Below, in pieces: positions 1 to 14,242 of a stretch of 14,242 bases of DNA. Under the pieces are notes generated by a model that saw nothing but the letters and a program-made list of their open reading frames with translations, did not search any database and was not told the DNA's origin. The stretch's first letter is position 1. Every line of letters begins with the position of its first letter. Location: positions 1 to 14,242 of the IMG/VR virus record IMGVR_UViG_3300029567_000055, one strand, 5' to 3'. The translations under genes were made by a program, and so were the position numbers. Origin of the DNA: a virus. Taxonomy: Duplodnaviria > Heunggongvirae > Uroviricota > Caudoviricetes.

Positions 1-258
1 GAAGGGCTGCGCACGAAAGAACGCCAGAAACAGCTGGTCGCGGAAGGGAAAAGCCAGACCATGAACAGCCGCCACCTGACCGGTGATGCGGTGGATGTTG
101 TGGCCTACATTGGCAGCCAGGTGTCATGGGACTGGCCTCTGTACGAGAAAATCGTGCAGGCATTTAAGCAGGCTGCCGCAGAGCTGGGAACTGCCATCGA
201 ATGGGGCGGGGACTGGAAAACGCTGAAAGACGGGCCTCACTTTCAGTTGAAACGCTGA
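1..258 (+). CDS. Endolysin, peptidase M15/LAS family (likely L-alanyl-D-glutamate or D-Ala-D-Ala peptidase type); 5'-partial, C-terminal ~85 aa only
   Basis: Frame 1 is open from base 1 to the TGA at 256-258. The translation EGLRTKERQKQLVAEGKSQTMNSRHLTGDAVDV...DGPHFQL carries the SxHxxGxAxD and D...H zinc-ligand pattern typical of LAS/M15 phage peptidases. Its position immediately upstream of the packaging genes matches the end of a lysis cassette. Confidence 0.65.
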   Translation, partial: EGLRTKERQKQLVAEGKSQTMNSRHLTGDAVDVVAYIGSQVSWDWPLYEKIVQAFKQAAAELGTAIEWGGDWKTLKDGPHFQLKR

Positions 259-272
259 TAACCAGGTGTGTT

Positions 273-455
273 ATGAGCAGAAAACACTGGACACACAGAA
301 TGCCGCGAACGGCGGCGAAATGGGCACTGGTAGCGATACTGGTGCCTTTTTTATTGGTGGGATGCGTCAGCCTGGATAAGGCGCGCCAGCTTTTCGATAC
401 GGCTTCTCAGGTCTGCGAAATTGTTGACGGTGTTCGGCAGTGTCTGCAGAACTGA
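273..455 (+). CDS. Small lipoprotein (~60 aa precursor, ~30 aa mature), function unknown; lysis-cassette associated
   Basis: ATG at 273 follows AGGTG (264-268). The N-terminus MSRKHWTHRMPRTAAKW is basic, followed by a hydrophobic core ALVAILVPFLL and a lipobox L-V-G-C. The mature part has two more Cys. An alternative start is the ATG at 300 (MPRTAAKW). Confidence 0.5.
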   Translation: MSRKHWTHRMPRTAAKWALVAILVPFLLVGCVSLDKARQLFDTASQVCEIVDGVRQCLQN

Positions 456-626
456 TCGCCCGTAAGAGCAGAATATTTTGCTGAAAAATGAAGGATGCGT
501 CAGCGCCCGGAAAGCATGAAATTCTGTGTTTGCGGTCATTCAATAAAATAAATTCTTTCTTTCGCCGCGAATACTCAAATGTTGATCAGCGCCAGGTGCG
601 GCGACGGGCTTCGATATCAGGAGACG

Positions 627-905
627 ATGATGGGAAAAACAGAAAACAAACCGATTTTAGTTGGTGTCGCGTCTATTCCGTTTAAGTTTGAACTGTCACA
701 ACTGGTGGAAGTATGCATCAGTGATGAATGGGGTGAGGTTAAAGCTCGCGCTCAGTATGCAGATGGCGAAAACCAGTACTTGCTCCACTACAAAGCTGCT
801 GATGGTCGTGCCACGACGGAGTGGTTTGGTGAATCAATGCTGGAAGCAACAGAAGATGCTCGTCATCCGGGCTGTCCGGTATTTGCCTTCATGAAATTAC
901 CGTAA
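627..905 (+). CDS. Hypothetical small acidic cytoplasmic protein (~92 aa), moron-like
   Basis: AGGAG at 619-623 is followed by tandem ATGs at 627 and 630; 630 has the better spacing. The ORF is open to the TAA at 903-905. There is no TM segment or signal peptide and no motif I recognise. It is preceded by about 170 bp of AT-rich non-coding DNA. Confidence 0.5.
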   Translation: MMGKTENKPILVGVASIPFKFELSQLVEVCISDEWGEVKARAQYADGENQYLLHYKAADGRATTEWFGESMLEATEDARHPGCPVFAFMKLP

Positions 906-987
906 GGTGCGGTAGTTACTGAGTAACAGGCATTACAGCAGCCCTTCAGTGAGGGGCTGCGATAATGCCGGTATTAAGGAGATTCCA

Positions 988-1338
988 ATGCCATCACGAA
1001 TCCCCCGCGCATGCCGTAAGCGAGGTTGCGCAGGCACGACAACAGACAGCTCTGGCTACTGCGATAAACATCGGGGTGAAGGCTGGGTGCAGCACCAGCG
1101 CGGACTGAGCCGCCACCAGCGTGGCTATGGCTCAAAATGGACGGTGATTCGAGCCCGTATTCTGAAGCGCGATAAAGGTCTGTGTCAGTTGTGTCTGCGT
1201 GTCGGTGTGGTGCGCGAGGCGAAAACTGTCGACCACATCATCCCGAAAGCACATGGCGGAACAGATGCAGACAGCAACCTGCAGAGTCTGTGCTGGCCCT
1301 GCCACAAAGCGAAAACAGCGCGCGAACGAATCAGGTGA
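988..1338 (+). CDS. HNH endonuclease (terminase-associated)
   Basis: ATG at 988 follows AAGGA (976-980). The translation has Cys pairs (CRKRGCAG...CDKH; CQLCL...CWPCH) and the HNH core ...TVDHIIPKAHGG...N...CHKAK. It sits directly upstream of the terminase small subunit, as in HK97-like cos phages. Confidence 0.8.
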   Translation: MPSRIPRACRKRGCAGTTTDSSGYCDKHRGEGWVQHQRGLSRHQRGYGSKWTVIRARILKRDKGLCQLCLRVGVVREAKTVDHIIPKAHGGTDADSNLQSLCWPCHKAKTARERIR

Positions 1339-1485
1339 TAATTATTCTCACTTGTGGGGAGGGGCGGGTAAAATCCCTGCAGCCCTGGCTGCTCAGTACC
1401 GCCGCCTGACCTTTCCTCGCATCGCCGCAGGTTCGAAAACTTTTTTTTGGGAATGCGATCAAACGATTGATAGGTAAAACCGATT
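1339..1485 (+). other. Putative cos/packaging-initiation region (intergenic HNH-terS)
   Basis: A 147-bp non-coding gap between the HNH and terS genes, with a G-rich tract gtggggaggggcggg (about 1354-1368) and a T8 run (1441-1448). The assignment rests on position only. Confidence 0.3.
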
Positions 1486-1968
1486 ATGTCAGGACCCCCG
1501 AAAACCCCGCCACGCCTGCATTTGATACGAGGCAACCCATCAAAGCGCCCCGTTAAAGACCCCAAAAAAACCGCTAAAAAGGACGAAAAAGGTCTCCCTA
1601 AAATTCCGCAACATTTAGGGGCGCAGGGGAAGTACTGGTTCAGGCGAATGGCGGAAGAACTGAATGCGGAAGGGATCATTTCTCAGCTTGATGCGCGTGC
1701 ACTCGAGTTGCTGGTGGAAGCCTACACCGAATACCGGCATCACTGCGAAATACTCGATGTTGAGGGTTATACCTACCGCACGGAAACGCAGAACGGTGAT
1801 GTGCTGATTAAGGCACACCCGGCTGCTGCGATGAAAGCGGATGCCTGGAAGCGGATCCGGGCGATGCTTGCAGAGTTTGGTATGTCACCGGCAAGCCGGG
1901 CGAAAGTAAATACCGCCGGACCGGATGATGTTGATCCGCTGGCGGAACTTTTAAAAGCGAGAGACTGA
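1486..1968 (+). CDS. terS: Terminase small subunit, P27 family
   Basis: The 160-aa product has a basic Lys/Pro-rich N-terminus (KRPVKDPKKTAKKDEKGLPKIP) followed by ...YWFRRMAEEL...LDARALELLVEAY..., typical of P27-family TerS. Its stop overlaps the terL start as ATGA at 1966-1970. Confidence 0.8.
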   Translation: MSGPPKTPPRLHLIRGNPSKRPVKDPKKTAKKDEKGLPKIPQHLGAQGKYWFRRMAEELNAEGIISQLDARALELLVEAYTEYRHHCEILDVEGYTYRTETQNGDVLIKAHPAAAMKADAWKRIRAMLAEFGMSPASRAKVNTAGPDDVDPLAELLKARD

Positions 1969-3725
1969 TGGCAAAAGTGGCTGACGGGATCCGCTACGCC
2001 GAACGTGTTGTTGCAGGAGAAATTGTCGCTGGCGAATTTGTCCGTCTGGCCTGCCAGCGTTTTCTTGATGATCTGAAGTACGGCGAAGAGCGGGGGATTT
2101 ATTTCAGTGAACCCCGTGCGCAGCACATCCTGAATTTCTACAAATTTGTGCCCCATGTAAAAGGGGCGCTGGCAGGCCAGCCCATTGAACTGATGGACTG
2201 GCATGTATTTATTCTCATTAATATTTTTGGTTTTGTCATTCCGCTGGTCAATGAAGAGACCAGGGAAGTTGTTATGCGCAGCGATGGCAGCGGACGTCCG
2301 GTGATGGTGCGCCGGTTCCGGACGGCGTACAACGAAGTCGCCCGTAAAAACGCAAAATCAACCCTGTCATCGGGTATCGGTCTGTATATGACGGGGGCAG
2401 ATGGTGAAGGCGGGGCTGAGGTGTATTCAGCCGCAACCACGCGTGACCAGGCCAGAATCGTGTTTGAAGACGCCAAAAATATGGTCAGAAAAGCCCGGTC
2501 GACACTCGGGCGATTGTTTGATTTCAACAAGCTGGCGATTTACCAGGAGCAGAGCGCATCAAAATTTGAACCGCTTTCTTCGGATGCAAACAACCTGGAT
2601 GGTCTGAACATCCACTGCGCCATTATTGATGAGCTGCATGCACATAAAACCCGCGACGTGTGGGACGTTCTGGAAACGGCAACTGGTGCCCGTCTGCAGT
2701 CCCTGTTATTTGGTATCACCACGGCTGGCTTTAACAAGGAAGGGATTTGTTACGAGCAACGCGATTACGCCATCAAGGTATTGCGTGGCTATAACAGTGA
2801 CGTGGAGGGCGCGGTAAAAGACGACTCTTACTTTGCGATCATTTACACGCTCGATGAGGGAGATGATCCGTTTGATGAAACGGTCTGGCAGAAAGCGAAT
2901 CCCGGCCTGGGCATCTGTAAACGCTGGGATGATTTGCGTCGTCTGGCGAAAAAAGCGAAGGAGCAGGTTTCTGCGCGGGTGAATTTTTTCACGAAACACA
3001 TGAATGTGTGGGTCACTGCCGAATCTGCCTGGATGGACATGATTAAGTGGGAGAAGTGCGAATACATTGCTCCACAGCATGAGCTGAAAACATATCCCAT
3101 GTGGGTCGGTGTAGACCTTGCTCATAAGATTGATATCTGTGCGGCGGCAAAACTCTGGCGAACCGATAACGGACATGTTCATGCTGATTTTAAATTCTGG
3201 CTCCCGGAAGGACGGCTGGAGCGGTGCTCGCGGCAGCAGGCAGAACTTTACCGGAAATGGGCGGAGATGGATAAGCTCATCCTGACGGATGGTGATGTTA
3301 TCGATCATGCTCAGATAAAAAGTGACTTACTGGAATGGATTGGTGGTGAAAACCTGAGGGAGCTGGGATTTGACCCGTGGAGTGCAATGCAGTTCAGTCT
3401 GGCTCTGGCTGAAGAAGGGATACCGCTGGTGGAAGTTCCGCAGACGGTCCGCAATCTGTCAGAGGCTATGAAGGAAACGGAATCACTGGTCTATGCCGGG
3501 CGTTTTCACCACAGCAATCACCCGGTCATGAACTGGATGATGTCTAACGTTACGGTAAAACCGGACAAAAACGACAATATCTTCCCGAACAAATCCACGC
3601 CTGAAGCCAAAATCGACGGTCCTGTTGCGATGTTTACAGCAATGAGCCGGATGCTGGTCAATGGCGGTGAACCGGAGCCGGATCTGTCTGAGCATCTGGT
3701 CAGCGTTGGTATTCGCTCGCTTTAA
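1968..3725 (+). CDS. terL: Terminase large subunit (HK97-like, Terminase_1 type ATPase-nuclease)
   Basis: The 585-aa ORF contains [18 protein letters not shown] (Walker-A-like), ...[13 protein letters not shown] (Walker B / DExH-like) and a C-terminal nuclease-like region. It is translationally coupled to terS. Confidence 0.9.
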
Positions 3726-3736
3726 CCGAGGGCATT

Positions 3737-3919
3737 ATGTTTCTGATAATTCTCACGCCACTGGTGGGCGTGCTGGGGGCGCTTTTGCTGGCGTATGGCG
3801 CCTGGCTGATTTATCCCCCGGCAGGTTTTGTTGTTGCCGGGGCGCTGTGTCTGTGCTGGTCGTGGCTGGTTGCGCGTTATCTCGATCGCGGTCACCGGGT
3901 CGCCTCTGGAGGTGAGTAA
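3737..3919 (+). CDS. Small membrane protein, 2 predicted TM helices (60 aa), unknown function
   Basis: ATG at 3737 follows GAGGG (3727-3731). The translation shows two hydrophobic helices ([23 protein letters not shown] and [17 protein letters not shown]) and a charged tail. Its TAA overlaps the portal ATG (TAATG at 3917-3921), indicating translational coupling. Confidence 0.5.
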
Positions 3920-5160
3920 TGTTTTTCCAGGGGCTTTTTCAACGCAAAAATAACACCCCCGTCACAACGCCCGGGATGCTTGCGGAAGAGCTGGGGTTGT
4001 CATACGACACCTATACCGGAAAGCGGATCAGCAGCCAGCGGGCCATGCGGCTGACGGCGGTCTATTCCTGCGTCAGGGTGCTGGCTGAGTCTGTTGGTAT
4101 GCTGCCCTGCAGTCTCTACAAAATCAGCGGCACCCTTAAAACACGGGCGGTGGATGAACGGCTGCATAAGCTGATTTCGGCAAAACCCAATGGCTACATG
4201 ACGCCGCAGGAATTCTGGGAACTGGTTATCGTCTGCCTGTGTCTGCGGGGTAATTTTTACGCCTACAAGGTAAAGGCACTGGGGGAAGTGGTGGAGCTTC
4301 TTCCGATAGATCCGGGCTGTGTGGAACCGAAGCTGAACAGCCAGTGGCAGCCGGTTTATCAGGTGACGTTTCCGGATGGTTCCGTGGATGTGCTGACCCA
4401 GAATGAAATCTGGCATGTGCGTACCCTGACGCTGGATGGACTTGTCGGTCTGAATCCCATTGCATATGCGCGCGAGGCCATTTCACTGGCAGCGGCAACC
4501 GAGGAGCATGGTGCCAGATTGTTTGGCAATGGCGCGGTAACATCCGGTGTGTTGCGTACGGATCAACAACTTTCTGACCAGGCTTATGCGCGTATCAAAA
4601 AGGATTTTGAGGAACGGCATGTCGGGCTGGGAAACTCTCATCGTCCGATGATTCTGGAAATGGGGCTGGACTGGAAAACGGTGGCACTGAATGCCGAGGA
4701 CAGCCAGTTCCTGGAAACCCGCAAGTTTCAGCTGGAAGAAATCTGTCGCCTGTTCCGCGTGCCGCTGCATATGGTGCAGAACACCGATCGCGCCACCTTC
4801 AACAATATTGAAGAGCTGGGGCTTGGTTTCATTAACTATTCCCTTGTGCCGTATCTGACCCGTATTGAGCAGCGGATCAATACAGGGCTGGTCAGGGAGA
4901 GCAAGCAGGGAAAATTTTACGCCAAGTTTAATGCCGGAGCATTGTTGCGTGGCGACATGAAATCCCGCTTTGAAGCGTATGCCACGGGGATCAACTGGGG
5001 GATTTATTCCCCTAATGACTGCCGTGATCTGGAAGATATGAATCCCCGACCGGGCGGTGATGTGTATCTGACACCGATGAACATGACCACCAGTCCCTCT
5101 GCTGGCGATGACAACGGTAAGAAAAAGGAGAGTGGAGATGCAGACAAAACAGCGTCTTGA
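3919..5160 (+). CDS. Portal protein, HK97 family
   Basis: A 413-aa ORF immediately after terL in the canonical position, with the size and sequence character of HK97-family portals. Its 3' end overlaps the protease gene. Confidence 0.85.
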   Translation: MFFQGLFQRKNNTPVTTPGMLAEELGLSYDTYTGKRISSQRAMRLTAVYSCVRVLAESVGMLPCSLYKISGTLKTRAVDERLHKLISAKPNGYMTPQEFWELVIVCLCLRGNFYAYKVKALGEVVELLPIDPGCVEPKLNSQWQPVYQVTFPDGSVDVLTQNEIWHVRTLTLDGLVGLNPIAYAREAISLAAATEEHGARLFGNGAVTSGVLRTDQQLSDQAYARIKKDFEERHVGLGNSHRPMILEMGLDWKTVALNAEDSQFLETRKFQLEEICRLFRVPLHMVQNTDRATFNNIEELGLGFINYSLVPYLTRIEQRINTGLVRESKQGKFYAKFNAGALLRGDMKSRFEAYATGINWGIYSPNDCRDLEDMNPRPGGDVYLTPMNMTTSPSAGDDNGKKKESGDADKTAS

Positions 5161-5788
5161 TATACCGCTGAACCTGAAATCCGTCAGTGATTCCGGGGAA
5201 TTTGAAGGTTACGGTTCTGTTTTTGGTGTTAAGGACAGCCACGATGATGTGGTGGTCCCCGGAGCCTTTACCACAACACTCCAGAAATGGAGCGAAAAAA
5301 AGGCGCTGCCTGCGTTGCTCTGGCAGCACCGCATGGATGAGCCCATCGGTGTGTACACCGAAATGAAAGAAGATGATGTCGGGCTTTATGTCAGGGGACG
5401 ATTACTCATTGATGATGATCCCCTGGCAAAACGTGCACATGCCCATATGAAGGCCGGTTCTTTAACCGGCCTTTCTATTGGCTACATCCTGAAAGACTGG
5501 GAGTACGACCGGGAAAAAGGGGTATTCCTGCTGAAAGAGATCGACCTGTGGGAGGTCAGTCTGGTGACGTTTCCTTCCAATGATGAAGCACGCATCAGCG
5601 ATGTGAAAAATGCGCTGGCGCGTGGGGAGATCCCTGATCAGAAAATTATTGAGCGGGTCCTGCGCGATGTTGGACTCTCGCGAACCCAGGCCAAAGCATT
5701 CATGGCCGGGGGATATGGCGCTTTATCCCTGCGTGATGCTGAGGATGTGGATGCCGCACTGAATGCACTGAAAAATCTTAAATTTTAA
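5138..5788 (+). CDS. Prohead maturation protease, HK97 family (S78/U35)
   Basis: ATG at 5138 follows AAGGAG (5126-5131). The product MQTKQRLDIPLNLKSVSDSGEFEGYGSVFGV.DSHDDVV.PGAF is the characteristic N-terminus of HK97-type prohead proteases. The gene lies between portal and capsid. Confidence 0.85.
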   Translation: MQTKQRLDIPLNLKSVSDSGEFEGYGSVFGVKDSHDDVVVPGAFTTTLQKWSEKKALPALLWQHRMDEPIGVYTEMKEDDVGLYVRGRLLIDDDPLAKRAHAHMKAGSLTGLSIGYILKDWEYDREKGVFLLKEIDLWEVSLVTFPSNDEARISDVKNALARGEIPDQKIIERVLRDVGLSRTQAKAFMAGGYGALSLRDAEDVDAALNALKNLKF

Positions 5789-5801
5789 TCAGGAGTAAAT
5801 A

Positions 5802-7028
5802 ATGGCTGTTGATATTAAAGACGTTGAACAGGTCGCGCAGGATTTGCAGCAGAAGTTTGACGATTTTAAGGCAAAAAACGACAAGCGCATTGACGCGATC
5901 GAACAGGAAAAAGGCAAGCTGGCCGAACAGGTGGAAAGCCTGAACGGGCAAATCAGCGAGCTGGAGAACCTGAAAAGCGACCTGGAAAAAGAGCTGGCAG
6001 ACATCAAGCGTCCGGCAGGCGGCACGCAAAATAAAGTTGCCGGTGAACACAAAGAAGCGTTTATCGGATTTATGCGCAAGGGGCGTGAAGACGGTCTGCG
6101 TGAACTTGAACGTAAGGCGCTTCAGGTAGGTAATGATGAAGATGGTGGTTATGCCATTCCGGAAGAACTGGATCGTACCATCCTGACGCTACTGAAAGAT
6201 GAGGTGGTGATGCGCCAGGAAGCCACTGTGATCACCCTCGGTGGCTCGGATTATAAAAAACTGGTGAATCTGGGCGGCACAACGTCCGGATGGGTGGGGG
6301 AAACGGATGCTCGTCCGGAAACCGCCACCTCAAAACTGGGTCTGATTGAACCCTTTATGGGGGAAATCTACGGCAACCCGCAGGCCACCCAGAAAATGCT
6401 CGATGATGCTTTCTTCAATGTGGAAGACTGGATCAACAGTGAGCTGGCGCTGGAATTTGCCGAGCAGGAAGAAATTGCCTTTACCAGTGGCGACGGCAGC
6501 AAAAAACCAAAAGGTTTTCTGGCTTACGAGTCCACCGATGAAGATGACAAGACCCGTGCGTTTGGCAAACTTCAGCACATTGCTTCCGGTGCGGCTTCCG
6601 GCGTGACTGCCGATGCGATCATTAAACTGATTTACACCCTGCGCAAGGCGCACCGCAGCGGCGCGAAGTTTATGATGAACAACAGCAGCCTGTTTGCCAT
6701 TCGTCTGCTGAAGGATAACGACGGAAATTATCTGTGGCGTCCGGGTATTGAGCTGGGTCAGCCTTCTTCTCTGGCAGGGTATGGCATCGTTGAGAATGAA
6801 CAGATGCCGGATATTGCTGCCGATGCAAAAGCCATTGCGTTTGGTAACTTCAAACGTGGCTATACCATCGTTGATCGCATCGGTACCCGTATCCTGCGCG
6901 ATCCGTACACCAATAAACCGTTTGTGGGTTTTTACACCACCAAGCGAACCGGCGGTATGCTGGTGGATTCTCAGGCGATTAAGCTGATGAAAATTGGGGC
7001 CGCAACCCGCCAGAAAGCCGCTGCGTAA
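5802..7028 (+). CDS. Major capsid protein, HK97 fold, with N-terminal coiled-coil delta (scaffold) domain
   Basis: ATG at 5802 follows AGGAG. The first ~100 aa are heptad-rich and charged (DLQQKFDDFKAKNDKRIDAIEQEKGKLAEQVESLNGQISELENLKSDLEKELADIK). The remainder has the size and composition of an HK97-type capsid protein. No separate scaffold gene is present. Confidence 0.9.
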   Translation: MAVDIKDVEQVAQDLQQKFDDFKAKNDKRIDAIEQEKGKLAEQVESLNGQISELENLKSDLEKELADIKRPAGGTQNKVAGEHKEAFIGFMRKGREDGLRELERKALQVGNDEDGGYAIPEELDRTILTLLKDEVVMRQEATVITLGGSDYKKLVNLGGTTSGWVGETDARPETATSKLGLIEPFMGEIYGNPQATQKMLDDAFFNVEDWINSELALEFAEQEEIAFTSGDGSKKPKGFLAYESTDEDDKTRAFGKLQHIASGAASGVTADAIIKLIYTLRKAHRSGAKFMMNNSSLFAIRLLKDNDGNYLWRPGIELGQPSSLAGYGIVENEQMPDIAADAKAIAFGNFKRGYTIVDRIGTRILRDPYTNKPFVGFYTTKRTGGMLVDSQAIKLMKIGAATRQKAAA

Positions 7029-7040
7029 TGCGGTTTTTTA

Positions 7041-7062
7041 TGCCCGCACAGTGTTGCGGGCA
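7041..7062 (+). promoter_or_regulatory. RNA stem-loop immediately upstream of the connector-gene RBS (8-bp stem tgcccgca/tgcgggca, 6-nt loop)
   Basis: A perfect 8-bp inverted repeat at 7041-7048 and 7055-7062. The 3' arm abuts GGAG (7063-7066) and the ATG at 7073. A weak ccgc/gcgg stem plus T6 (7018-7039) lies just upstream, spanning the capsid stop codon. Confidence 0.35.
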
Positions 7063-7072
7063 GGAGTTTCTG

Positions 7073-7390
7073 ATGGCAGCAATAGTGGAAAAACTCAGGG
7101 CGCAGTGCCGTATTGATACAGATGATGCAACTGATGATGAGTTACTGATGCTGTATTTCCGGGCTGCCTGCCGCAAGGCAGAAAATTTTATCAACCGTAA
7201 GCTTTATGAGGAGACGGTGCCGGAAGGTGATCCTGACGGGGTGCTTATAGCTGATGATGTTTTGCTGGCGCTCATGTTGCTGGTCGGACACTGGTACGAA
7301 AACCGGGAAAATTCCTCAGATGTCAGCAAGGCACCAGTTCCGTTTGGTTTTTCTTCTCTGCTGGAGCCTTATCGTTTTATTCCTTTGTAG
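7073..7390 (+). CDS. Head-tail connector protein (gp6-like / Phage_connect_1 type)
   Basis: ATG at 7073 follows GGAG. The product MAAIVEKLRAQCRIDTDDATDDELLMLYFRAACRKAENF matches the L..K.HLRID.DD.D..I...I.AA pattern of gp6-like connectors. It lies directly after the capsid gene. Confidence 0.65.
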   Translation: MAAIVEKLRAQCRIDTDDATDDELLMLYFRAACRKAENFINRKLYEETVPEGDPDGVLIADDVLLALMLLVGHWYENRENSSDVSKAPVPFGFSSLLEPYRFIPL

Positions 7391-7398
7391 GAGGAACC

Positions 7399-7737
7399 AT
7401 GCAGGCGGGCAGATTACGTGATCGCGTAACTATTCTGAATGTCACCACCGTCCGTTCTCCGTCAGGGCATCCGGTGGAGACAATGACGGAGGGGGCAACC
7501 GTATGGGCAGAAGTTAAGGGGATCAGCGGGAGGGAGAGAATATCAGGAGGTGCAGAAACCGCTCAGGCTACGGTCAGAGTCTGGATGCGATTTCGGCGCG
7601 ATGTGACAGCGACTTCACGTCTGAAAGTGCTGACCGGTGCATTTAAAGGGGTCACTCTTGGTATAGAAGGGCCACCAATACCGGATGCACGCGCCACCCG
7701 GCTTGAAATGCTCTGCAGTCTGAAGGGGAATGTGTGA
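7399..7737 (+). CDS. Head closure / head-tail joining protein (Phage_H_T_join type)
   Basis: ATG at 7399 follows GGAGG. The product MQAGRLRDRVTI...VWAEVKGISGRE...RVWMRFRRDV...RLEMLC fits the head-closure family profile. Its stop overlaps the next gene's start. Confidence 0.7.
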   Translation: MQAGRLRDRVTILNVTTVRSPSGHPVETMTEGATVWAEVKGISGRERISGGAETAQATVRVWMRFRRDVTATSRLKVLTGAFKGVTLGIEGPPIPDARATRLEMLCSLKGNV

Positions 7738-8183
7738 TGGATTTCAGTCTTGATTTTTCAGGTCTGGCGGATATTGCACGGGATCTGGAGACGCTCAGCA
7801 GGGCAGAAAACAATAAGGTTCTGCGCGATGCCACCCGTGCCGGTGCTGAAGTTATGCGGGATGCAGTTGTTGAACGTGCGCCGGAGCGAACCGGGAAACT
7901 GAAGAAAAATGTGGTTGTTCTCACGCAGCGTTCAAAGCGTCGGGGGGAAATTATCTCGGGTGTCCACATTCGCGGACGGAACCTGCGAACCGGAAACAGT
8001 GATAACAGCATGAAAGCCAGCGATCCCCGAAATGCGTTTTACTGGCGCTTTGTGGAGCTGGGAACGATAAACATGCCCGCGCATCCGTTCATTCGCCCGG
8101 CTTTCGATACGACAGAGGAACTGGCAGCACAGATTGCCATACAGCGAATGAATCAGGCTATTGATGAGGTCTTAAGTAAATGA
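7737..8183 (+). CDS. HK97 gp10-family protein (neck / tail-completion component)
   Basis: ATG at 7737 overlaps the upstream TGA (7735-7737); a GTG at 7734 is an alternative start. The motifs ...RAPERTGKLKKNVVV... and ...YWRFVELGTINMPAHPFIRPA are characteristic of the HK97 gp10 family. Confidence 0.75.
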   Translation: MDFSLDFSGLADIARDLETLSRAENNKVLRDATRAGAEVMRDAVVERAPERTGKLKKNVVVLTQRSKRRGEIISGVHIRGRNLRTGNSDNSMKASDPRNAFYWRFVELGTINMPAHPFIRPAFDTTEELAAQIAIQRMNQAIDEVLSK

Positions 8184-8524
8184 GGGAAGCCACACTGTAT
8201 TCCCTGCTGTCTCAACTGGCCGGAGGACAGGTTTATCCTTATGTGGTCCCGCTGACGGAGGGAAAGCCTGCGGTATCTCCGCCGTGGCTGGTGTTTTCTG
8301 TGGTGTCTGACACGGCGTCTGATGTGCTTGATGGTCAGGCTGAATCCAGAATTACCGTGCAGATCGATGTCTGGGCAACAGTACCTGATGACGCAGATGA
8401 TATCCGTGAGCAGGCGCTTGATGCGGTAAGGCAACTTGCACCCTCCGTTATTTCTAAAACTCAGGGTTATGATCCTGATTCCCGTCTGAGCAGAGCCACG
8501 CTTGAATTTCAGGTAATAGCCTGA
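8180..8524 (+). CDS. Tail terminator / tail-completion-like protein (DUF3168 or gpU-like, tentative)
   Basis: ATG at 8180 overlaps the upstream stop (ATGA). The 114-aa product lies between the neck genes and the major tail gene, the position occupied by U-like tail terminators. The family assignment is by position and size. Confidence 0.5.
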   Translation: MREATLYSLLSQLAGGQVYPYVVPLTEGKPAVSPPWLVFSVVSDTASDVLDGQAESRITVQIDVWATVPDDADDIREQALDAVRQLAPSVISKTQGYDPDSRLSRATLEFQVIA

Positions 8525-8544
8525 GGTCGTTAATGATTTTACCC

Positions 8545-8571
8545 ACCCGCCGCTGGCGGGTTTTTTATTTT
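8545..8571 (+). terminator. Intrinsic (rho-independent) terminator
   Basis: A GC stem cccgcc (8546-8551) / ggcggg (8555-8560) with loop gct, extended by a45:t61, followed by TTTTTTATTTT (8561-8571). It lies in the gap between the DUF3168-like gene and the major tail gene. Confidence 0.6.
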
Positions 8572-8583
8572 CAGGAGACGAGT

Positions 8584-9288
8584 ATGTCCTCTAATTTTGA
8601 GCGTTCGCAACTGACGAAAATTATGATTTCGTCTGCACCGGTAACAGCAGAAACCCTGGATTCTGCCAGCTATCTTGGCCTGAGCTGTACAATCAAAGAG
8701 GTGCAGTTTACCGCAGGACAAAAGCAGGATATTGATGTCACCACGCTGTGTTCTGTTGAGCAGGAAAATATTAACGGCCTTGGTGCCGCGTCAGAGATTT
8801 CCATGTCAGGCAACTTTTACCTCAATGCTGCCCAGAACGCGTTGCGCAGTGCCTATGACAATGACACCACGTATGGCTTTAAAGTTATTTTTCCGTCAGG
8901 CAACGGATTTACCTTTATGGCAGAGGTGCGTCAGCATACCTGGTCTGCAGGAACTAATGGTGTTGTGGCTGCAACGTTTTCCCTGCGCCTGAAAGGTAAA
9001 CCTGTGCTGACGACAGAGCCGCTGAAAGTGAAGGTCGATTTAAACAGCACGCTGCAGGTTTCTGCCGGAGCGAAACTCGAAATGGTGGTTGAGGCTGCCG
9101 GTGGTGTGCCGCCTTATTCTTATGTCTGGAAGAAAGGTAGTTCTCCTGTTTCCGGACAGACGGCGGCAACATTCAGTAAGGCATCAGCAGCATCAGGTGA
9201 TGCCGGTGCGTATACCTGCGAGATTTCTGATTCAGCAAGCCCTGTTAACAAGGTGACCTCCACTTCCTGCACTGTTACCGTCAGTTAA
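8584..9288 (+). CDS. Major tail (tube) protein with C-terminal Ig-like domain
   Basis: ATG at 8584 follows CAGGAG (8572-8577), downstream of the terminator. The N-terminal ~150 aa are tail-tube-like. The C-terminal ~90 aa (LQVSAGAKLEMVVEAAGGVPPYSYVWKK...GDAGAYTCEISD...CTVTVS) has the I-set/Big-like Ig signature (W...Y.C). Confidence 0.75.
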   Translation: MSSNFERSQLTKIMISSAPVTAETLDSASYLGLSCTIKEVQFTAGQKQDIDVTTLCSVEQENINGLGAASEISMSGNFYLNAAQNALRSAYDNDTTYGFKVIFPSGNGFTFMAEVRQHTWSAGTNGVVAATFSLRLKGKPVLTTEPLKVKVDLNSTLQVSAGAKLEMVVEAAGGVPPYSYVWKKGSSPVSGQTAATFSKASAASGDAGAYTCEISDSASPVNKVTSTSCTVTVS

Positions 9289-9302
9289 TGAGGATAGATG
9301 TG

Positions 9303-9674
9303 ATGACTAAAAATATCCGCAATCTGGCACTGGCAACGATGTCGGGGTTTCGCCATAAAACTGTTGATGTGCCTGAATGGGAAGGGGCAACGGTTGTATT
9401 ACGGGAACCTTCTGCAGAAGCCTGGTTGCGCTGGCAGGAGATCGTTAAAGCAAAAGATGATGAGACACCGTTATCCGTTGCGGAGCGCGCCCGCCGAAAT
9501 CTGGAGGCAGATGTTGAACTGTTCATTGATGTTCTGTGTGATACCGGACTGCAACCTGTATTTTCAGAGGATGATCGTGAACAGGTGATTGCCGTGTATG
9601 GCCCGGTGCATGCGCGGCTTCTTCGGCAGTCTCTGGAACTGATCAGTGATGCCGGCGAGGTTAAAAAAAAGTAG
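9303..9674 (+). CDS. Tail assembly chaperone (lambda G-like), frame-0 product
   Basis: ATG at 9303 follows AGGAT (9291-9295); an in-frame ATG at 9288 overlaps the upstream stop. The ORF ends ...EVKKK-TAG at 9672-9674, directly on an A8G slippery run. It lies immediately upstream of the tape measure gene. Confidence 0.75.
   Translation: MTKNIRNLALATMSGFRHKTVDVPEWEGATVVLREPSAEAWLRWQEIVKAKDDETPLSVAERARRNLEADVELFIDVLCDTGLQPVFSEDDREQVIAVYGPVHARLLRQSLELISDAGEVKKK
9665..9671 (+). promoter_or_regulatory. Programmed -1 ribosomal frameshift slippery heptamer A_AAA_AAG (G/GT-type)
   Basis: Frame-0 codons are AAA(9666-8) AAG(9669-71) TAG. The -1 frame is blocked by TAA at 9662-9664 but open from 9665 to 9976, so a slip on this heptamer fuses the chaperone to the downstream ORF. 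Confidence 0.65.
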
Positions 9675-9976
9675 AGCTTCCGGGGATGCGTTTTCTGATG
9701 ATGCTGGCGCTCAGGATGGGGCGCACATTGTCAGAGTTACGCCGGGAAATGTCCGCATCAGAAATCATGATGTGGGCAGAATTTGACAGGTACAGCCCGC
9801 TGGGTGACGAGCGGGCTGATATCCGGGCTGCCCAGATAGTTTCTGCGGTTTACGGTGCGCAGGGTGTCAAAGTCCCACTGAATGATGCGCTTCTTCAGTG
9901 GGAACAAGAGCAGACAGAAGGCGTCTCAGATCCATTTGCCGGACTGGAAAACGCGCTTTTAATAGTGTCTCAGTGA
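9665..9976 (+). CDS. Tail assembly chaperone frameshift extension (lambda T-like part of a G-T fusion)
   Basis: This is the -1 frame relative to the chaperone, open 9665..9976. It has no Shine-Dalgarno of its own before the first ATG at 9686. The predicted fusion junction is ...EVKKK-K-VELPGMRFLMM.... Confidence 0.6.
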   Translation, partial: KKVELPGMRFLMMLALRMGRTLSELRREMSASEIMMWAEFDRYSPLGDERADIRAAQIVSAVYGAQGVKVPLNDALLQWEQEQTEGVSDPFAGLENALLIVSQ

Positions 9977-9984
9977 GTCAACAT

Positions 9985-10006
9985 AACCGCTTCGGCGGTT
10001 TTTTTC
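9985..10006 (+). terminator. Intrinsic terminator with UUCG tetraloop
   Basis: Stem aaccgc (9985-9990) / gcggtt (9995-10000) with loop ttcg, followed by a T-run through 10005. It lies between the G-T extension stop (9976) and the tape measure start. Confidence 0.6.
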
Positions 10007-10015
10007 GTCCGGAGA

Positions 10016-13000
10016 ATGAGTGTGGCGACATTACGTGAACTGATTATTAAAATCTCGGCAAATTCCCGGTCATTCCAGTCAGAGATCTCCCGGGCTTCGC
10101 GTATGGGGCAGGATTACTACCGTACCATGCAGAACGGAGGCCGGCAGTCCGCTGCTGCATCCCGTGAAATGCGGCGTGCACTGGCAGAAGTGACGGATCA
10201 GATAAATACAGCTAAATCTTCGGCACTGAATATGGCGGGGGCATTTGCCGGAGCTTTTGCTACNNNNNNNNNNGTCATCTTATTTCTCTCGCCGATGAGT
10301 GGAATTCAGTAAATGCCCGTCTGAAGCAGGCTTCACAGTCCAGTGATGATTTTCAGGTATCACAACGTGAATTAATGGCAATCAGCCAGAGAACGGGAAC
10401 GGCGTTTTCTGATAACGCCAGCCTTTTTGCCCGCTCTGCAGCTTCCATGCGGGAGTATGGCTACAGTTCTGAGGAGGTACTGAAAGTCACCGAGGCGATC
10501 TCCACGGGCCTGAAATTATCCGGTGCCAGTACAGCAGAAGCCAGTTCGGTGATCACGCAGTTCAGTCAGGCACTGGCGCAGGGAGTGCTGCGCGGTGAAG
10601 AATTTAACTCTGTGAATGAGAACGGCGATCGTGTTATTCGTGCGCTGGCTGCGGGAATGGGTGTTGCCCGTAAGGATCTGAAGGCCATGGCGGATAACGG
10701 AAAACTGACCGCCGATAAGGTTGTTCCTGCACTGATTAGTCAGCTTGGGGCGTTGCGTGATGAATATGCAGCAATGCCTGATACTGTTTCATCCTCTGCA
10801 ACCAAAGTTGAAAACGCCTTTATGGCCTGGGTTGGTGGTGCGAACGAGGCAAGCGGAGTGACAAAGACACTCACCGGGGTGTTGAATGGTGTTGCAGACA
10901 ATATTGATACCGTGGCTGCTGCAGCTGGCGCACTGGTTGCCGTCGGGGTAGCCCGATATTTTGGCAATATGGCGTCGTCTGCTGGATCTGCAACTGCCGG
11001 ATTAATTACTGCAGCCAGAAACGAAGTGGCTCTTGCTGAAGCGCAACTTCGGGGGACACAGATAGCAACCGCCAGGGCGCGTGCGGCGGTTTATCGTGCG
11101 CAACAGGCGGTTGTTGCTGCTCGCGGTACCGAAAGGCAGGCCGCAGCAGAAGCGAAGCTGACAGCTGCCCAGGCGTCACTTACCCGTAATATTGCGGCCA
11201 GAACAGCGGCACAGACAACGCTGAATACTGTCACGTCAGTGGGGAGTCGTCTGTTAAGTGGTGCGCTGGGGTTGGTTGGTGGTGTGCCGGGACTCGTCAT
11301 GCTGGGGGCGACGGCCTGGTACACGATGTATCAGAATCAGGAGCAGGCCAGAGAATCTGCACGCCAGTATGCCGCAACAATCGACGAAATTCGCCAGAAA
11401 ACGTCGGCAATGTCGCTTCCTGAAGCGTCAGATAATGAGGAAAAGACGCGGCAGGCACTTGATGAGCAAAACAGGTTAATTGACGAGCAGAAAAGTAAGA
11501 TTAAATCCTTACAGGAAAAAATTGCTGGCTATCAGTATGTGCTGGCAAACCCGGGCTGGACAACCGATAACGGTTTTATGATTAACCACATGACGTCGGT
11601 AAAAACTGTCACAGAAGGGCTTGCAGAAGCAACAAATCAACTGGCAGTTGAACAGTCCCGTCTCACACAAATGCAGGGCAAAGCGCAATCCATTCAGGAT
11701 GTGCTTGCCGGGCTGGAGGAGCGACGGGTGGCGTTGATCCGTCAACAGGCCGCGGAACAAAACAAAGCGTATCAGTCCCTGTTGATCATGAATGGGCAGC
11801 ATACCGAGTTTAATCGCCTTCTCGGGCTCGGTAATGAATTACTTCAGCAGCGACAGGGGCTGGTGAATGTACCGTTACGGCTACCACAGGCAACCCTGGA
11901 TGATAAACAGCAGACCGCACTGAATAACAGCGAGCGCGAACTGGCTCTGTCCCGCCTGAAGGGGGAAGCCCGTGAGCGTGCCCGCCTGGGTTATGCTGCG
12001 GATGATCTCGGCTTTGTGGGAGAGGCGTATCAGACAGCCAGACAGAATTATATCAATAACTCACTGGATGCCTGGCGAAATAACCAGGCAAATAAACCCA
12101 AAGCGCATAAAAAGACCGAAGCGGAAAAAACAGAAGATATTTATAAACGGCTGATTAAACAGCAAAAAGAACAAATAGCACTGGCAGGGCAGAATACTGA
12201 ACTGGCTAAGATGAAATATCAGGTCAGTCAGGGCGAATTATCAACCCTGTCAGAAGCGCAGAAAAAAACGCTTTTGCAGAATGCAGCACTCATCGACCAG
12301 AAAAAGATTCGTGAGCAGCTTGCTGCGTATGAGAGCAGTCTGGCGGACAGTAATGCCAGTGCCCGGGCATCTGACGACGCGCAGTTGCTGGGATATGGTG
12401 AAGGCTCACGGATGCGTGAACGACTCCAGGAAATGTGGAGTATCCGGCAGACGTTTGAGCAGAAAAATAACGAACTGCTGAGACAGTATCAGGCCGGAGA
12501 AATTGAAGAAGCCCTGTGGAAACAGGAGAAAGAACTGAATAAAAAATATCTGGAAGAGCGTCTCAGCGATCAGCAGGATTATTATGCAAAGGCCGATGCT
12601 TTACGTAATAACTGGAATGCCGGACTCCAGGAAGGACTGACCAACTGGGCAGACAGTGCCACCGATTATGCTTCACAGGCGGCAGATGCTGTCGTTTCCA
12701 CGATGGACGGGCTGGTATCAAATATTTCCGATGCACTGGCCGGGAATGTTGTGGAGTGGAGGAACTGGGGGAGTTCAGTTCTCCGGGAAGTTTCAAAAAT
12801 TCTGATGAATGCAGCCATTGTTAACGGACTGAAATCACTCTCCGGTGCCGGAGGGTGGCTTGGTACGGTCGGCGGATGGATTTCGGGGGCGGTGGCAAAC
12901 GCAAAAGGTGGTGTTTACACATCGGCAAATCTGAGTGCTTACAGTAACACTATTGTGGATACACCGACGTATTTTGCTTTTGCGAAAGGTGCCGGGCTGA

Positions 13001-13257
13001 TGGGTGAGGCCGGGCCTGAAGCTATCATGCCACTGACACGGGCAGCGGACGGCTCTCTTGGGGTCAGAGCCATTGGCAATGTGAATGGTGGCGGTGGATT
13101 TGTTTATTCTCCCGTGTATCACATCAGCATTCAGAATCAAGGGAGCAATGGCGAGATAGATACGCGCTCAGCCAGGGGACTGGTGGATCTGATCGACAGC
13201 AGGGTTGTGTCAATTATGCAGTCATCGCGTCGGGATGGAGGATTATACAGTGCCTGA
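10016..13257 (+). CDS. Tail tape measure protein (lambda H-like), interrupted by a 10-N assembly gap
   Basis: ATG at 10016; a GTG at 10022 has better spacing from GGAG (10011-10014). The frame after the gap is open from the Ns through the listed 10375 start, reading ...HLISLADEWNSVNARLKQASQSSDDFQVSQRELMAISQ.... The product is long, Ala/Gln-rich and coiled-coil in the middle. The C-terminal part (...NWADSATDYASQAADAVVSTMDG...GGLYSA) resembles the lambda gpH C-terminus. The ORF track's 10016..10312 and 10375..13257 pieces are one gene. Confidence 0.8.
10264..10273. other. Assembly gap (run of 10 N)
   Basis: A literal nnnnnnnnnn in the sequence; the true length is unknown. The apparent frame change across it is therefore uninformative. 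Confidence 0.95.
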
Positions 13258-13591
13258 GCCTGAAGTTTTTAACTGGATCCCCCGTGAGGGGATGGAGACG
13301 ACACGAAAGCCATCAGTTATTACGGTAAAGTTTGGTGACGGATATGAACAGCGACGGGCTGGTGGTCTGAATGCGGATCTGAAAACGTTTAAACCGGTAT
13401 TTCGTGTCACAGATGAATACTCCCGTGCCGCGCTGGACAGTTTTTTATCCCGTCATGCCGGGATTCGTGCTTTTTTGTGGCGTCCGCCAAAACACAACAG
13501 GACTGTCCGGGTTGTCTGCAGGGAGTGGAGCATTTCGGATAATGCCATGTATACCGATTTTAACTGTACCTTTGAAGAGGTCACTCACTGA
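13250..13591 (+). CDS. M: Minor tail protein M (lambda gpM-like)
   Basis: GTG at 13250 follows GGAGG (13237-13241) and overlaps the tape measure stop. The product ...VKFGDGYEQRRAGGLNADLKTF...FLWRPP...VVCREWS... parallels lambda M (FGDGYSQRAPAGLNANLKTY...FLWTPP...VTCAKWS) as I recall it. Its stop overlaps the next ATG (ATGA at 13589-13593). Confidence 0.8.
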   Translation: MPEPEVFNWIPREGMETTRKPSVITVKFGDGYEQRRAGGLNADLKTFKPVFRVTDEYSRAALDSFLSRHAGIRAFLWRPPKHNRTVRVVCREWSISDNAMYTDFNCTFEEVTH

Positions 13592-14242
13592 TGCAGGATA
13601 TACAGCAGGAAACACTCAATGAGTGCACTAAAACGGAGCAATCCGCGCTGGTCGTGCTCTGGGAAATTGATCTGACAGAGGTCGGCGGAGATCGTTATTT
13701 CTTCTGTAATGAGCAGAACGAAAAAGGTGAAGCAGTCACCTGGCAGGGGCGGCAGTATCAGGCCTATCCCATTCAGGGAAGTGGATTTGAGATGAACGGT
13801 AAAGGAGCCAGTGCAAGGCCAACTCTGAAAGTCTCTAATCTGCACGGCATGGTCACAGGGATGGCGGAAGATCTGCAGAGTCTGGTCGGCGGAACGGTGG
13901 TCCGGCGTAAGGTTTACGCCCGTTTTCTGGATGCGGTGAACTTCGTCAACGGAAACAGCGAAGCCGATCCGGAGCAGGAGGTAATCAGCCGCTGGCGCAT
14001 CGAGCAGTGCAGCGAACTGAGCGCGGTGAGTGCCTCCTTTGTACTGTCCACGCCGACGGAAACGGATGGCGCTGTTTTTCCGGGGCGCATCATGCTGGCC
14101 AACACCTGCACCTGGACCTATCGTGGTGATGAGTGTGGTTATAGCGGTCCGGCGGTCGCGGATGAATATGACCAGCCGACCTCCGATATCACGAAGGATA
14201 AATGCAGCAAATGCCTGAGTGGCTGTAAGTTTCGCAATAACG
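13591..14242 (+). CDS. L: Minor tail protein L (lambda gpL-like), 3'-partial
   Basis: ATG at 13591; the frame is open to the window end. My translation MQDIQQETLNECTKTEQSALVVLWEIDLTEVGGDRYFFCNEQNEKGE...CTWTYRGDECGYSGPAVADEYDQPTSDITKDKCSKCLSGCKFRNN is near-collinear with lambda gpL as I recall it, including the C-terminal Cys cluster. Confidence 0.9.
   Translation, partial: MQDIQQETLNECTKTEQSALVVLWEIDLTEVGGDRYFFCNEQNEKGEAVTWQGRQYQAYPIQGSGFEMNGKGASARPTLKVSNLHGMVTGMAEDLQSLVGGTVVRRKVYARFLDAVNFVNGNSEADPEQEVISRWRIEQCSELSAVSASFVLSTPTETDGAVFPGRIMLANTCTWTYRGDECGYSGPAVADEYDQPTSDITKDKCSKCLSGCKFRNN

Follow-up and report, generated by a model that had tools for sequence, protein, structure and literature searches.

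What does a very small lipoprotein do when its gene directly follows the endolysin gene of a lambdoid prophage and no spanin partner is found for it? The question is raised by a 14,242-nucleotide (nt) stretch of DNA (IMG/VR record IMGVR_UViG_3300029567_000055, positions 1 to 14,242; hereafter the window) from a tailed virus of the class Caudoviricetes, in which an open reading frame (ORF) at 273-455 on the + strand encodes a prolipoprotein of 60 residues. We propose that its product may be a lysis lipoprotein that acts on the outer membrane without a partner, as the last component of the prophage lysis cassette; judging from sequence, we give this reading about an even chance.

A prolipoprotein gene under purifying selection

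The gene starts with ATG at 273 and stops with TGA at 453-455, and its 60-residue product is MSRKHWTHRMPRTAAKWALVAILVPFLLVGC-VSLDKARQLFDTASQVCEIVDGVRQCLQN. The gene and the two parts of its product are placed as follows.

273..455, + strand: prolipoprotein gene, 60 codons plus stop (PHROG 7528; the phiP27 "o-spanin" of Kongari et al. 2018)
273..362, + strand: signal peptide, residues 1-30, with n-region 1-17, h-region ALVAILVPFLLV, and LVG before Cys31, as read from the sequence
363..452, + strand: mature lipopeptide, 30 residues from Cys31 (codons: Cys31, 363-365; Cys48, 414-416; Cys57, 441-443)

The original prediction, which was made from this DNA alone, had described a tiny lipoprotein directly after the endolysin, with a textbook signal and an LVGC lipobox, and this description was borne out by the 14-nt gap between the two genes and by the lipobox ending in Cys31. 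The n-region of the precursor is long and basic, with five Arg/Lys residues (R3, K4, R9, R12, and K16) and two His; the hydrophobic core extends from A18 to V29, and the lipobox L28-V29-G30-C31 matches the consensus [LVI][ASTVI][GAS]C. Residue +2 is Val in the window protein (Val, Ala, Thr, or Gly across the family), leaving it without an inner-membrane retention signal, and under the E. coli sorting rule the product is therefore expected in the outer membrane.

The prediction had also given the mature part as about 30 residues with two further cysteines and not proline-rich, unlike lambda Rz1, and we found the same: 30 residues including the predicted acylated Cys, additional cysteines at 48 and 57, no proline, and side chains that sum to a charge of -1 (within the family, -1 to +2). 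As a helix, the mature peptide is only moderately amphipathic, and not clearly more so than shuffled sequences. The signal peptide is the only hydrophobic segment of the precursor, and the chain stops 29 residues past the lipid anchor. An AlphaFold2 model built with 24 sequences is a single long helix, at a confidence too low for use (pLDDT 67, pTM 0.28). A turn-prone D-G or K-K lies between Cys48 and Cys57, which are 8 or 9 residues apart, and this pair of cysteines could either form a loop at the C-terminus or join subunits.

A word-indexed search recovered 160 homologs in E. coli, Salmonella, Citrobacter, Cronobacter, and Yersinia, and when 1.8 billion cluster representatives were searched exhaustively with a profile, 24 were returned, all belonging to one small family, with no bridge to any known family. 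By these searches, the family is small and enterobacterial. Of 5426 complete E. coli genomes, 317 carry the gene, at 498 places in all, and a scan of species-representative genomes yielded three loci only. In alignments that cover the diversity of the family, Cys31, Cys48, and Cys57 never vary, with the spacing C-x16-C-x8-C or, in a second subfamily, C-x16-C-x9-C, and the h-region and lipobox are invariant or almost so (alignments A1 and A3). The protein matches PHROG 7528, a family of unknown function, over its full length (E = 3.7e-38; residues 1-60 on profile positions 1-60 of 60). It had no match in Pfam at E≤0.1, in NCBIfam at E≤1, or in PADLOC. The profiles of colicin lysis protein (PF02402), entericidin (PF08085), and Rz1 (PF06085) were unmatched, which rules out homology to these named families only; canonical o-spanins, such as that of phage mEp390, sometimes have no Pfam match either.

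Among 50 distinct coding sequences, the ratio of nonsynonymous to synonymous variation (pN/pS) was 0.18 in the lipoprotein frame as compared to 1.0 and 2.0 in the other two frames. For the mature part, close relatives gave a ratio of 0.155 and divergent ones a ratio of 0.39, and at least 83 loci have the ORF intact. We thus conclude that 273-455 is a real gene under purifying selection at the protein level. Its conserved start is Met1, giving the 60-residue form, and other readings of the same DNA were rejected. A 51-residue form starting at Met10 is not general, as Met10 is replaced by Thr, Ile, or Val in many homologs. An in-frame extension to 84 residues from the ATG at 201 (201-455, + strand), which gene callers often choose, starts inside the endolysin gene, depends on that neighbor, and is unsupported by conservation. 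L32 as annotated in phage phiP27 (266-379, + strand, in window terms) is an out-of-frame ORF on the same DNA and is excluded by both conservation and pN/pS.

Lysis cassettes and the search for a partner

With a lambdoid prophage of E. coli CEA224S, located within the potABCD operon between potC and potB, the window shares 98.5% identity; its identity to phiP27, a phage carrying Shiga toxin (Stx) 2e, is 94%. In CEA224S the order runs from the Q antiterminator past a tRNA to holin, holin, M15 endolysin (125 residues), lipoprotein, HNH, and terminase. The first holin (PF16931, 130 residues) is multi-pass, and the second (PF05449, 91 residues) has three transmembrane domains (TMDs). In the window itself, the following precede the lipoprotein gene.

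1..258, + strand: 3' part of an M15-family endolysin gene (PF13539, phrog_465), 85 codons plus stop, truncated by the window edge
259..272, + strand: 14-nt spacer from endolysin stop to lipoprotein start, with a Shine-Dalgarno-like AGGTG at 264-268

The endolysin stop codon is at 256-258, and the fragment is 92-100% identical to the 125-residue "M15 family metallopeptidase" of locus L001. The 14-nt spacing recurs in 38 loci.

To place this arrangement in context, 80 IMG/VR loci, 3 from species-representative genomes, 9 for divergent homologs, and several annotated phages were compared, of which the 89 loci with sufficient upstream DNA were used for counts of endolysin position. The lipoprotein gene lies downstream of an endolysin gene in all 89 and in all divergent homologs. 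It abuts the endolysin gene directly in 46 (38 with M15 and 8 with GH108+PG_binding_3), and its start overlaps the endolysin stop in divergent homologs (Yersinia, Cronobacter, a Mu-like phage, and others) and, as ATGA, in GH108-type cassettes. One or two tiny membrane-protein genes intervene in 36 loci, the last of them abutting the lipoprotein start; these encode proteins of 57-60 residues (phrog_1115/4493) and 44 residues (phrog_4906) of unknown function, none of which occurs in the window (examples are L054 5662-5844 and 5862-5996, L044 5826-5999, and L003 3182-3355). Such interposed proteins may be optional lysis accessories. The remaining 7 loci have other inserts between the two genes, such as KilA-N or the insertion of phiP27.

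The cassettes are of four types, in which either the PF16931 and PF05449 holins or a lambda-S-type holin (PF05106) are combined with either an M15 or a GH108 endolysin. The packaging genes downstream are variously P27-type, Terminase_2, Terminase_6N, or Mu-type, and the virion modules found with the gene are those of a lambda-like siphovirus, a sheathed myovirus, a Mu-like phage, and an Stx podovirus. Because the downstream and tail modules vary freely, the gene appears to be inherited with the lysis function and not with receptor-binding or packaging modules.

This distribution bears on whether the gene might be a moron placed at the end of the cassette, encoding either an exclusion or receptor-masking lipoprotein, as the original prediction had suggested by analogy to Llp and Cor, or a host-fitness lipoprotein similar to Bor. 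Like Llp of T5 and Cor of phi80 and N15, the product is a small phage-encoded outer-membrane lipoprotein, with cysteines as in Llp, and the interval between endolysin and terminase is a known site for morons, relatives having acquired toxin genes, KilA-N, and a PerC-like-looking gene there. However, a receptor blocker should co-vary with tails, and this gene is instead tied to lysis genes and accompanied by unrelated tail and receptor modules. Expression in the lysogen is also not expected, as no promoter-like site was found upstream of the gene within the window, where the 14 nt to the endolysin gene leave no room for one, and in other relatives the two genes overlap. Inserted morons land between endolysin and lipoprotein or after the latter, never in its place, and PADLOC gave no match. 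We thus disfavor an exclusion role and consider a moron of either kind highly unlikely.

As a separate observation, genes for ADP-ribosylating toxins (LT-II-type and pertussis-like) immediately flank the cassette in Yersinia, Cronobacter, and E. coli prophages (L091 6988-8140; L092 2489-3217; L098 1276-2507 and 4298-5438), as does stx2e in phiP27, and the cassette borders are a recurrent toxin-moron site. In one cassette with a lambda-S-type holin, M15 endolysin, and lipoprotein (L097 5450-6310), the next gene encodes a 286-residue alpha/beta-hydrolase (Abhydrolase_1, Peptidase_S15). An esterase beside lysis genes recalls LysB of mycobacteriophages.

The absence of an Rz-like i-spanin from the window, noted in the original prediction, was upheld: tblastn queries drawn from three i-spanin families, from one o-spanin, and from the small membrane proteins gave no match in the window or in the whole CEA224S prophage, and a scan of the window for ORFs with a single N-terminal TMD turned up nothing near the cassette that could credibly be a type II membrane protein. 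The prediction had further allowed for a partner upstream of the window and had named an Rz-like gene there as the finding that would overturn it. Upstream of the endolysin gene in the near-identical CEA224S prophage are the two holins described above, and the RefSeq annotation of all 42 kb of this prophage includes no Rz, Rz1, or spanin; a partner in the upstream DNA is thus refuted. PF03245 was found in none of the flanks of divergent relatives examined, and the four cassette types share no phage-encoded membrane protein.

Several candidates for an i-spanin were rejected individually. The two holins are multi-pass and are missing from the cassette types with the lambda-S-type holin. The small membrane proteins of 57-60 and 44 residues (TM57/60 and TM44) are missing from the window and have almost no periplasmic domain. 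The ORF at 630-905 is soluble (phrog_1935).

A partner has been published for phiP27. In the spanin census of Kongari et al. 2018 (PMC6139136), PhiP27 is listed as a "separated" two-component spanin with a singleton o-spanin family, and its pair has the shortest combined periplasmic length of 528 systems (62 residues); the supplement places the i-spanin at 20348-20542 (64 residues) and the o-spanin at 20706-20861 (51 residues, 30 of them periplasmic, 83% helix). This o-spanin belongs to the family described here, read from Met10, and the phiP27 copy is 95% identical to the window protein. The i-spanin (NC_003356 20348-20542, equivalent to L002 5413-5607, + strand) has a TTG start and no PHROG or Pfam match. 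It sits in an insertion of ∼480 base pairs (bp) between endolysin and lipoprotein, antisense to a 90-residue ORF of phrog_36812; among 103 sequences searched, it was found in phiP27 alone, and the insertion is missing from the window. The pairing is most likely an artefact of seeking any TMD-containing ORF near a lipoprotein, and the TTG ORF is probably not a gene, so that phiP27 should probably be counted as having no i-spanin. The census also reports 31 genomes in which a lipoprotein has no i-spanin linked to it, and ∼13% of phages of Gram-negative hosts in which no spanin was identified, and treats this as an open problem. Of the "undescribed lysis or exclusion function" put forward in the original prediction, lysis is the best-supported part, and "undescribed" does not hold, given PHROG 7528 and the census entry.

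The window protein could still be a conventional o-spanin whose inner-membrane partner has gone unrecognized, the partner being a host protein, one of the small tail-anchored proteins, or its own uncleaved precursor. Its outer-membrane lipoprotein signal, its place behind the endolysin, and its periplasmic cysteines, which recall spanin families with important disulfides, would all suit an o-spanin, which is how the census catalogued it. Small transmembrane proteins abut the lipoprotein in the 36 loci mentioned, proteins with a C-terminal TMD could in principle act as i-spanins (PMC6139136), and the uncleaved precursor has the N-in/C-out topology of one. However, the published partner is the TTG ORF, confined to phiP27 and antisense to another gene; the genes for the small membrane proteins are missing not only from the window but also from the whole near-identical prophage and from 46 of the 89 loci; and two helices of 30 residues would reach at most ∼9 nm, short of the periplasm. 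We therefore regard a conventional o-spanin as unlikely.

Phage mEp390 and Salmonella phage 118970_sal3 have a homologous first holin (∼50% identical), then an endolysin, and then true spanins in the slot of the lipoprotein gene. In mEp390 these are a 91-residue i-spanin with an N-terminal TMD and an overlapping o-spanin with lipobox LIASC and a mature part of 58 residues, and in 118970_sal3 the slot holds a 130-residue Rz-like spanin. Phage GER2 (L100, MG710528), which has S, R, and an Rz of PF03245, carries a homolog of the lipoprotein gene ∼760 nt downstream of Rz (2989-3171), and this copy is decayed, with its start codon missing and three in-frame stops. Spanins in the same slot and decay in GER2 are circumstantial evidence, and they fit a protein that does the spanin's job.

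Linkage to lysis cassettes is silent on which step is served, and the protein might instead be an accessory lysis factor, e.g., one acting on timing or envelope stress, that does not open the outer membrane; these phages would then have no dedicated outer-membrane step. Small extra lysis factors do exist, such as Lcc6 of LambdaSo, the census fraction without identifiable spanins leaves room for such phages, and Rac-SA53 has a holin-holin-GH108 cassette with no lipoprotein gene (its annotation records a gene fusion by deletion). However, predicted targeting to the outer membrane puts the lipoprotein away from the holins, its association with two unrelated endolysin and two holin families speaks against a specific regulator of either, and relatives hold spanins in its slot. 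A purely accessory role is thus quite unlikely.

Downstream of the cassette, the 91-residue ORF at 630-905 (+ strand; phrog_1935, function unknown) lies between the lysis cassette and the HNH gene; its counterpart is marked in RefSeq as a C-terminally incomplete pseudogene, and it is present in only some related loci. The HNH endonuclease gene (988-1338, + strand) is directly upstream of P27-family small and large terminase genes (1486-1968 and 1968-3725, both + strand). The cos site of phiP27 is annotated between HNH and small terminase genes, and this order, usual for HK97-like cos phages, looks ordinary.

An RNA hairpin within the signal-peptide codons

The signal-peptide codons also contain a sequence with the look of an intrinsic terminator, in two parts.

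322..347, + strand: 11-bp RNA hairpin GGGCACUGGUA-GCGA-UACUGGUGCCU with a 4-nt loop, from a terminator scan; codons 17-25 (W17-P25)
348..356, + strand: U-rich tract TTTTTATTG directly 3' of the hairpin

On the transcribed strand, a GC-rich stem-loop is thus followed by UUUUUUAUU, as in an intrinsic terminator, and hairpin and tract together span codons 17-28. The predicted fold energy on the + strand is -16.1 kcal/mol (z = -3.8), or -21.7 kcal/mol (z = -4.05) with the flanking A and U tracts included. On the antisense strand it is only -9.1 kcal/mol, because three of the stem pairs are G-U. The region has no Rfam match.

Within the stem, every third position of a codon is base-paired to a second position, and synonymous variation there is strongly reduced. 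In ten divergent coding sequences, pS was 0.074 in the eight stem codons as compared to 0.545 elsewhere (∼7-fold lower). The loop codon gave 0.47, the signal-peptide codons on either side 0.42-0.45, and the mature part 0.62; among all 9-codon windows (median 0.55), the stem had the lowest value. The rare changes in the stem preserve or improve pairing (GCA to GCG, GTA to GTG, and CCT to CCC), one nonsynonymous change (CTG to CCG) converts a G-U pair to G-C, and the rare Ile codon ATA is invariant. The stem varies too little for a covariation count, and the case for the hairpin rests on the suppression of synonymous sites. In the GER2 pseudogene, hairpin and U tract are 94.9% identical to the window as compared to 72.2% for the remaining gene, and in L010 a partial copy of the gene starts exactly at the hairpin (6792-6830), ∼30 nt past an inserted 90-residue ORF that looks PerC-like.

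These features point to a sense-strand RNA element overlaid on the signal-peptide codons. It would most simply be an intrinsic terminator that is read through by Q-modified polymerase or masked by translation, and an element for RNA stability is another candidate. Because of this overlay, the signal peptide seems more conserved than the mature peptide.

Given such constraint, and given that the hairpin outlives the reading frame in GER2 and in the partial copy of L010, one could suppose that the ORF is incidental and merely carried along with a conserved terminator-like hairpin. However, purifying selection is also seen outside the hairpin, in the n-region and the mature part (pN/pS 0.15-0.39), and the three invariant cysteines and the number of intact ORFs argue for the protein as well. 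One homolog (P0125) keeps the protein with the hairpin absent, and GER2 itself shows that the ORF decays when selection is lifted. A role for the RNA alone is thus barely credible.

How the lipoprotein might act

We infer processing, outer-membrane location, a lytic role, and action without a partner, and the proposed sequence of events is as follows. Late expression of the Q-dependent operon would yield the lipoprotein along with the holins and endolysin. Its precursor would be exported by Sec, lipidated at Cys31, and cleaved by signal peptidase II (Lgt/Lsp/Lnt maturation), and Lol would deliver the mature lipopeptide to the inner leaflet of the outer membrane. A 30-residue, largely helical, two-cysteine lipopeptide would thus occupy the place held by spanins in related cassettes. 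Once holin and endolysin had removed the barrier of the inner membrane and the wall, it would weaken or break the outer membrane, and this last step would be run with no phage-encoded partner in the inner membrane. For the chemistry, activation of a phospholipase, an oligomeric pore, or perturbation of Lpp may be imagined within this proposal, each of them at best a minority possibility when taken singly.

Comparison with known systems indicates what kind of protein this would be. Like a two-component o-spanin of the lambda Rz1 type (and the phiP27 entry), it has an outer-membrane lipoprotein signal, the last place in the cassette, and periplasmic cysteines. However, its mature part is 30 residues long, predicted to be helical, and devoid of proline, whereas that of Rz1 has 40 residues and is proline-rich. 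A two-component o-spanin requires a cognate i-spanin gene that is embedded, overlapping, or adjacent, and none was found in the window, the near-identical prophage, or the flanks of relatives; spanins also require a joint periplasmic length that bridges both membranes, for which 30 residues do not suffice. A helix of this length measures ∼4.5 nm, too short for the periplasm, and the fusion model of Rz/Rz1 therefore does not transfer. With the unimolecular spanin gp11 of T1, the window protein shares a single gene, an outer-membrane lipoprotein signal, and a cassette without Rz, but gp11 has a C-terminal TMD and a long beta-rich periplasmic domain, and the window protein has neither.

Other tiny lipoproteins, with mature parts of ∼21-35 residues, are the colicin lysis or bacteriocin release proteins (Lysis_col, PF02402) and entericidin B (PF08085); their genes come last in lethal operons, and they affect the envelope with no partner that spans the periplasm. 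Lysis by the colicin proteins requires outer-membrane phospholipase A (OMPLA) together with a stable signal peptide. In size and general design, the window protein appears closest to these small lipoproteins and not to the periplasm-spanning Rz/Rz1 bridge, although they do not have the C-x16-C-x8/9-C pattern of its family. A search of the literature for links between spanins and bacteriocin release proteins, OMPLA, or PF16931 found nothing relevant, and one on Rac-SA53 was no more useful. A single-protein outer-membrane step in a phage without spanins has a precedent in disruptin (gp28 of phage phiKT), presented in a preprint as a cationic protein similar to antimicrobial peptides (bioRxiv 10.1101/515445); the window protein differs from it in having a lipobox and a charge of -1.

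Several points weigh against a partnerless lysis lipoprotein. The mature domain is unable to span the periplasm, and the peptide, being only moderately amphipathic and not cationic, resembles neither disruptin nor a classical antimicrobial peptide. By Pfam and NCBIfam searches, its sequence resembles neither colicin lysis proteins nor entericidins nor Rz1. The small membrane proteins encoded before the lipoprotein in 36 of 89 loci could be optional helpers, and the lipoprotein may be dispensable, given the cassette of Rac-SA53. The position of the gene is also circumstantial, as morons too gather at the ends of lysis cassettes.

It is possible, and we suggest it only tentatively, that the family constitutes a further class of phage outer-membrane lysis protein: 30 residues long, disulfide-bearing, anchored by lipid, without a partner, and with its expression tied to a terminator-like hairpin in its own signal codons. 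In a variant of this idea, uncleaved precursor in the inner membrane may pair with the mature form in the outer membrane, making a "homo-spanin."

The window protein thus appears to be an orphan lysis lipoprotein similar to an o-spanin, one that had been catalogued before with a partner that fails, and the census entry for the phiP27 i-spanin is corrected accordingly. Its coding sequence is under a double constraint, from the protein and from the RNA hairpin. How phages without recognizable spanins breach the outer membrane is an acknowledged question, and this family, which is present in E. coli lambdoid prophages, phiP27 (Stx2e) and an Stx2k phage among them, offers a tractable E. coli case. 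If the lipoprotein works alone, it would be a minimal and genetically simple disruptor of the outer membrane, and this would be relevant to the release of toxin from those Stx and LT-II prophages whose toxin genes flank the cassette.

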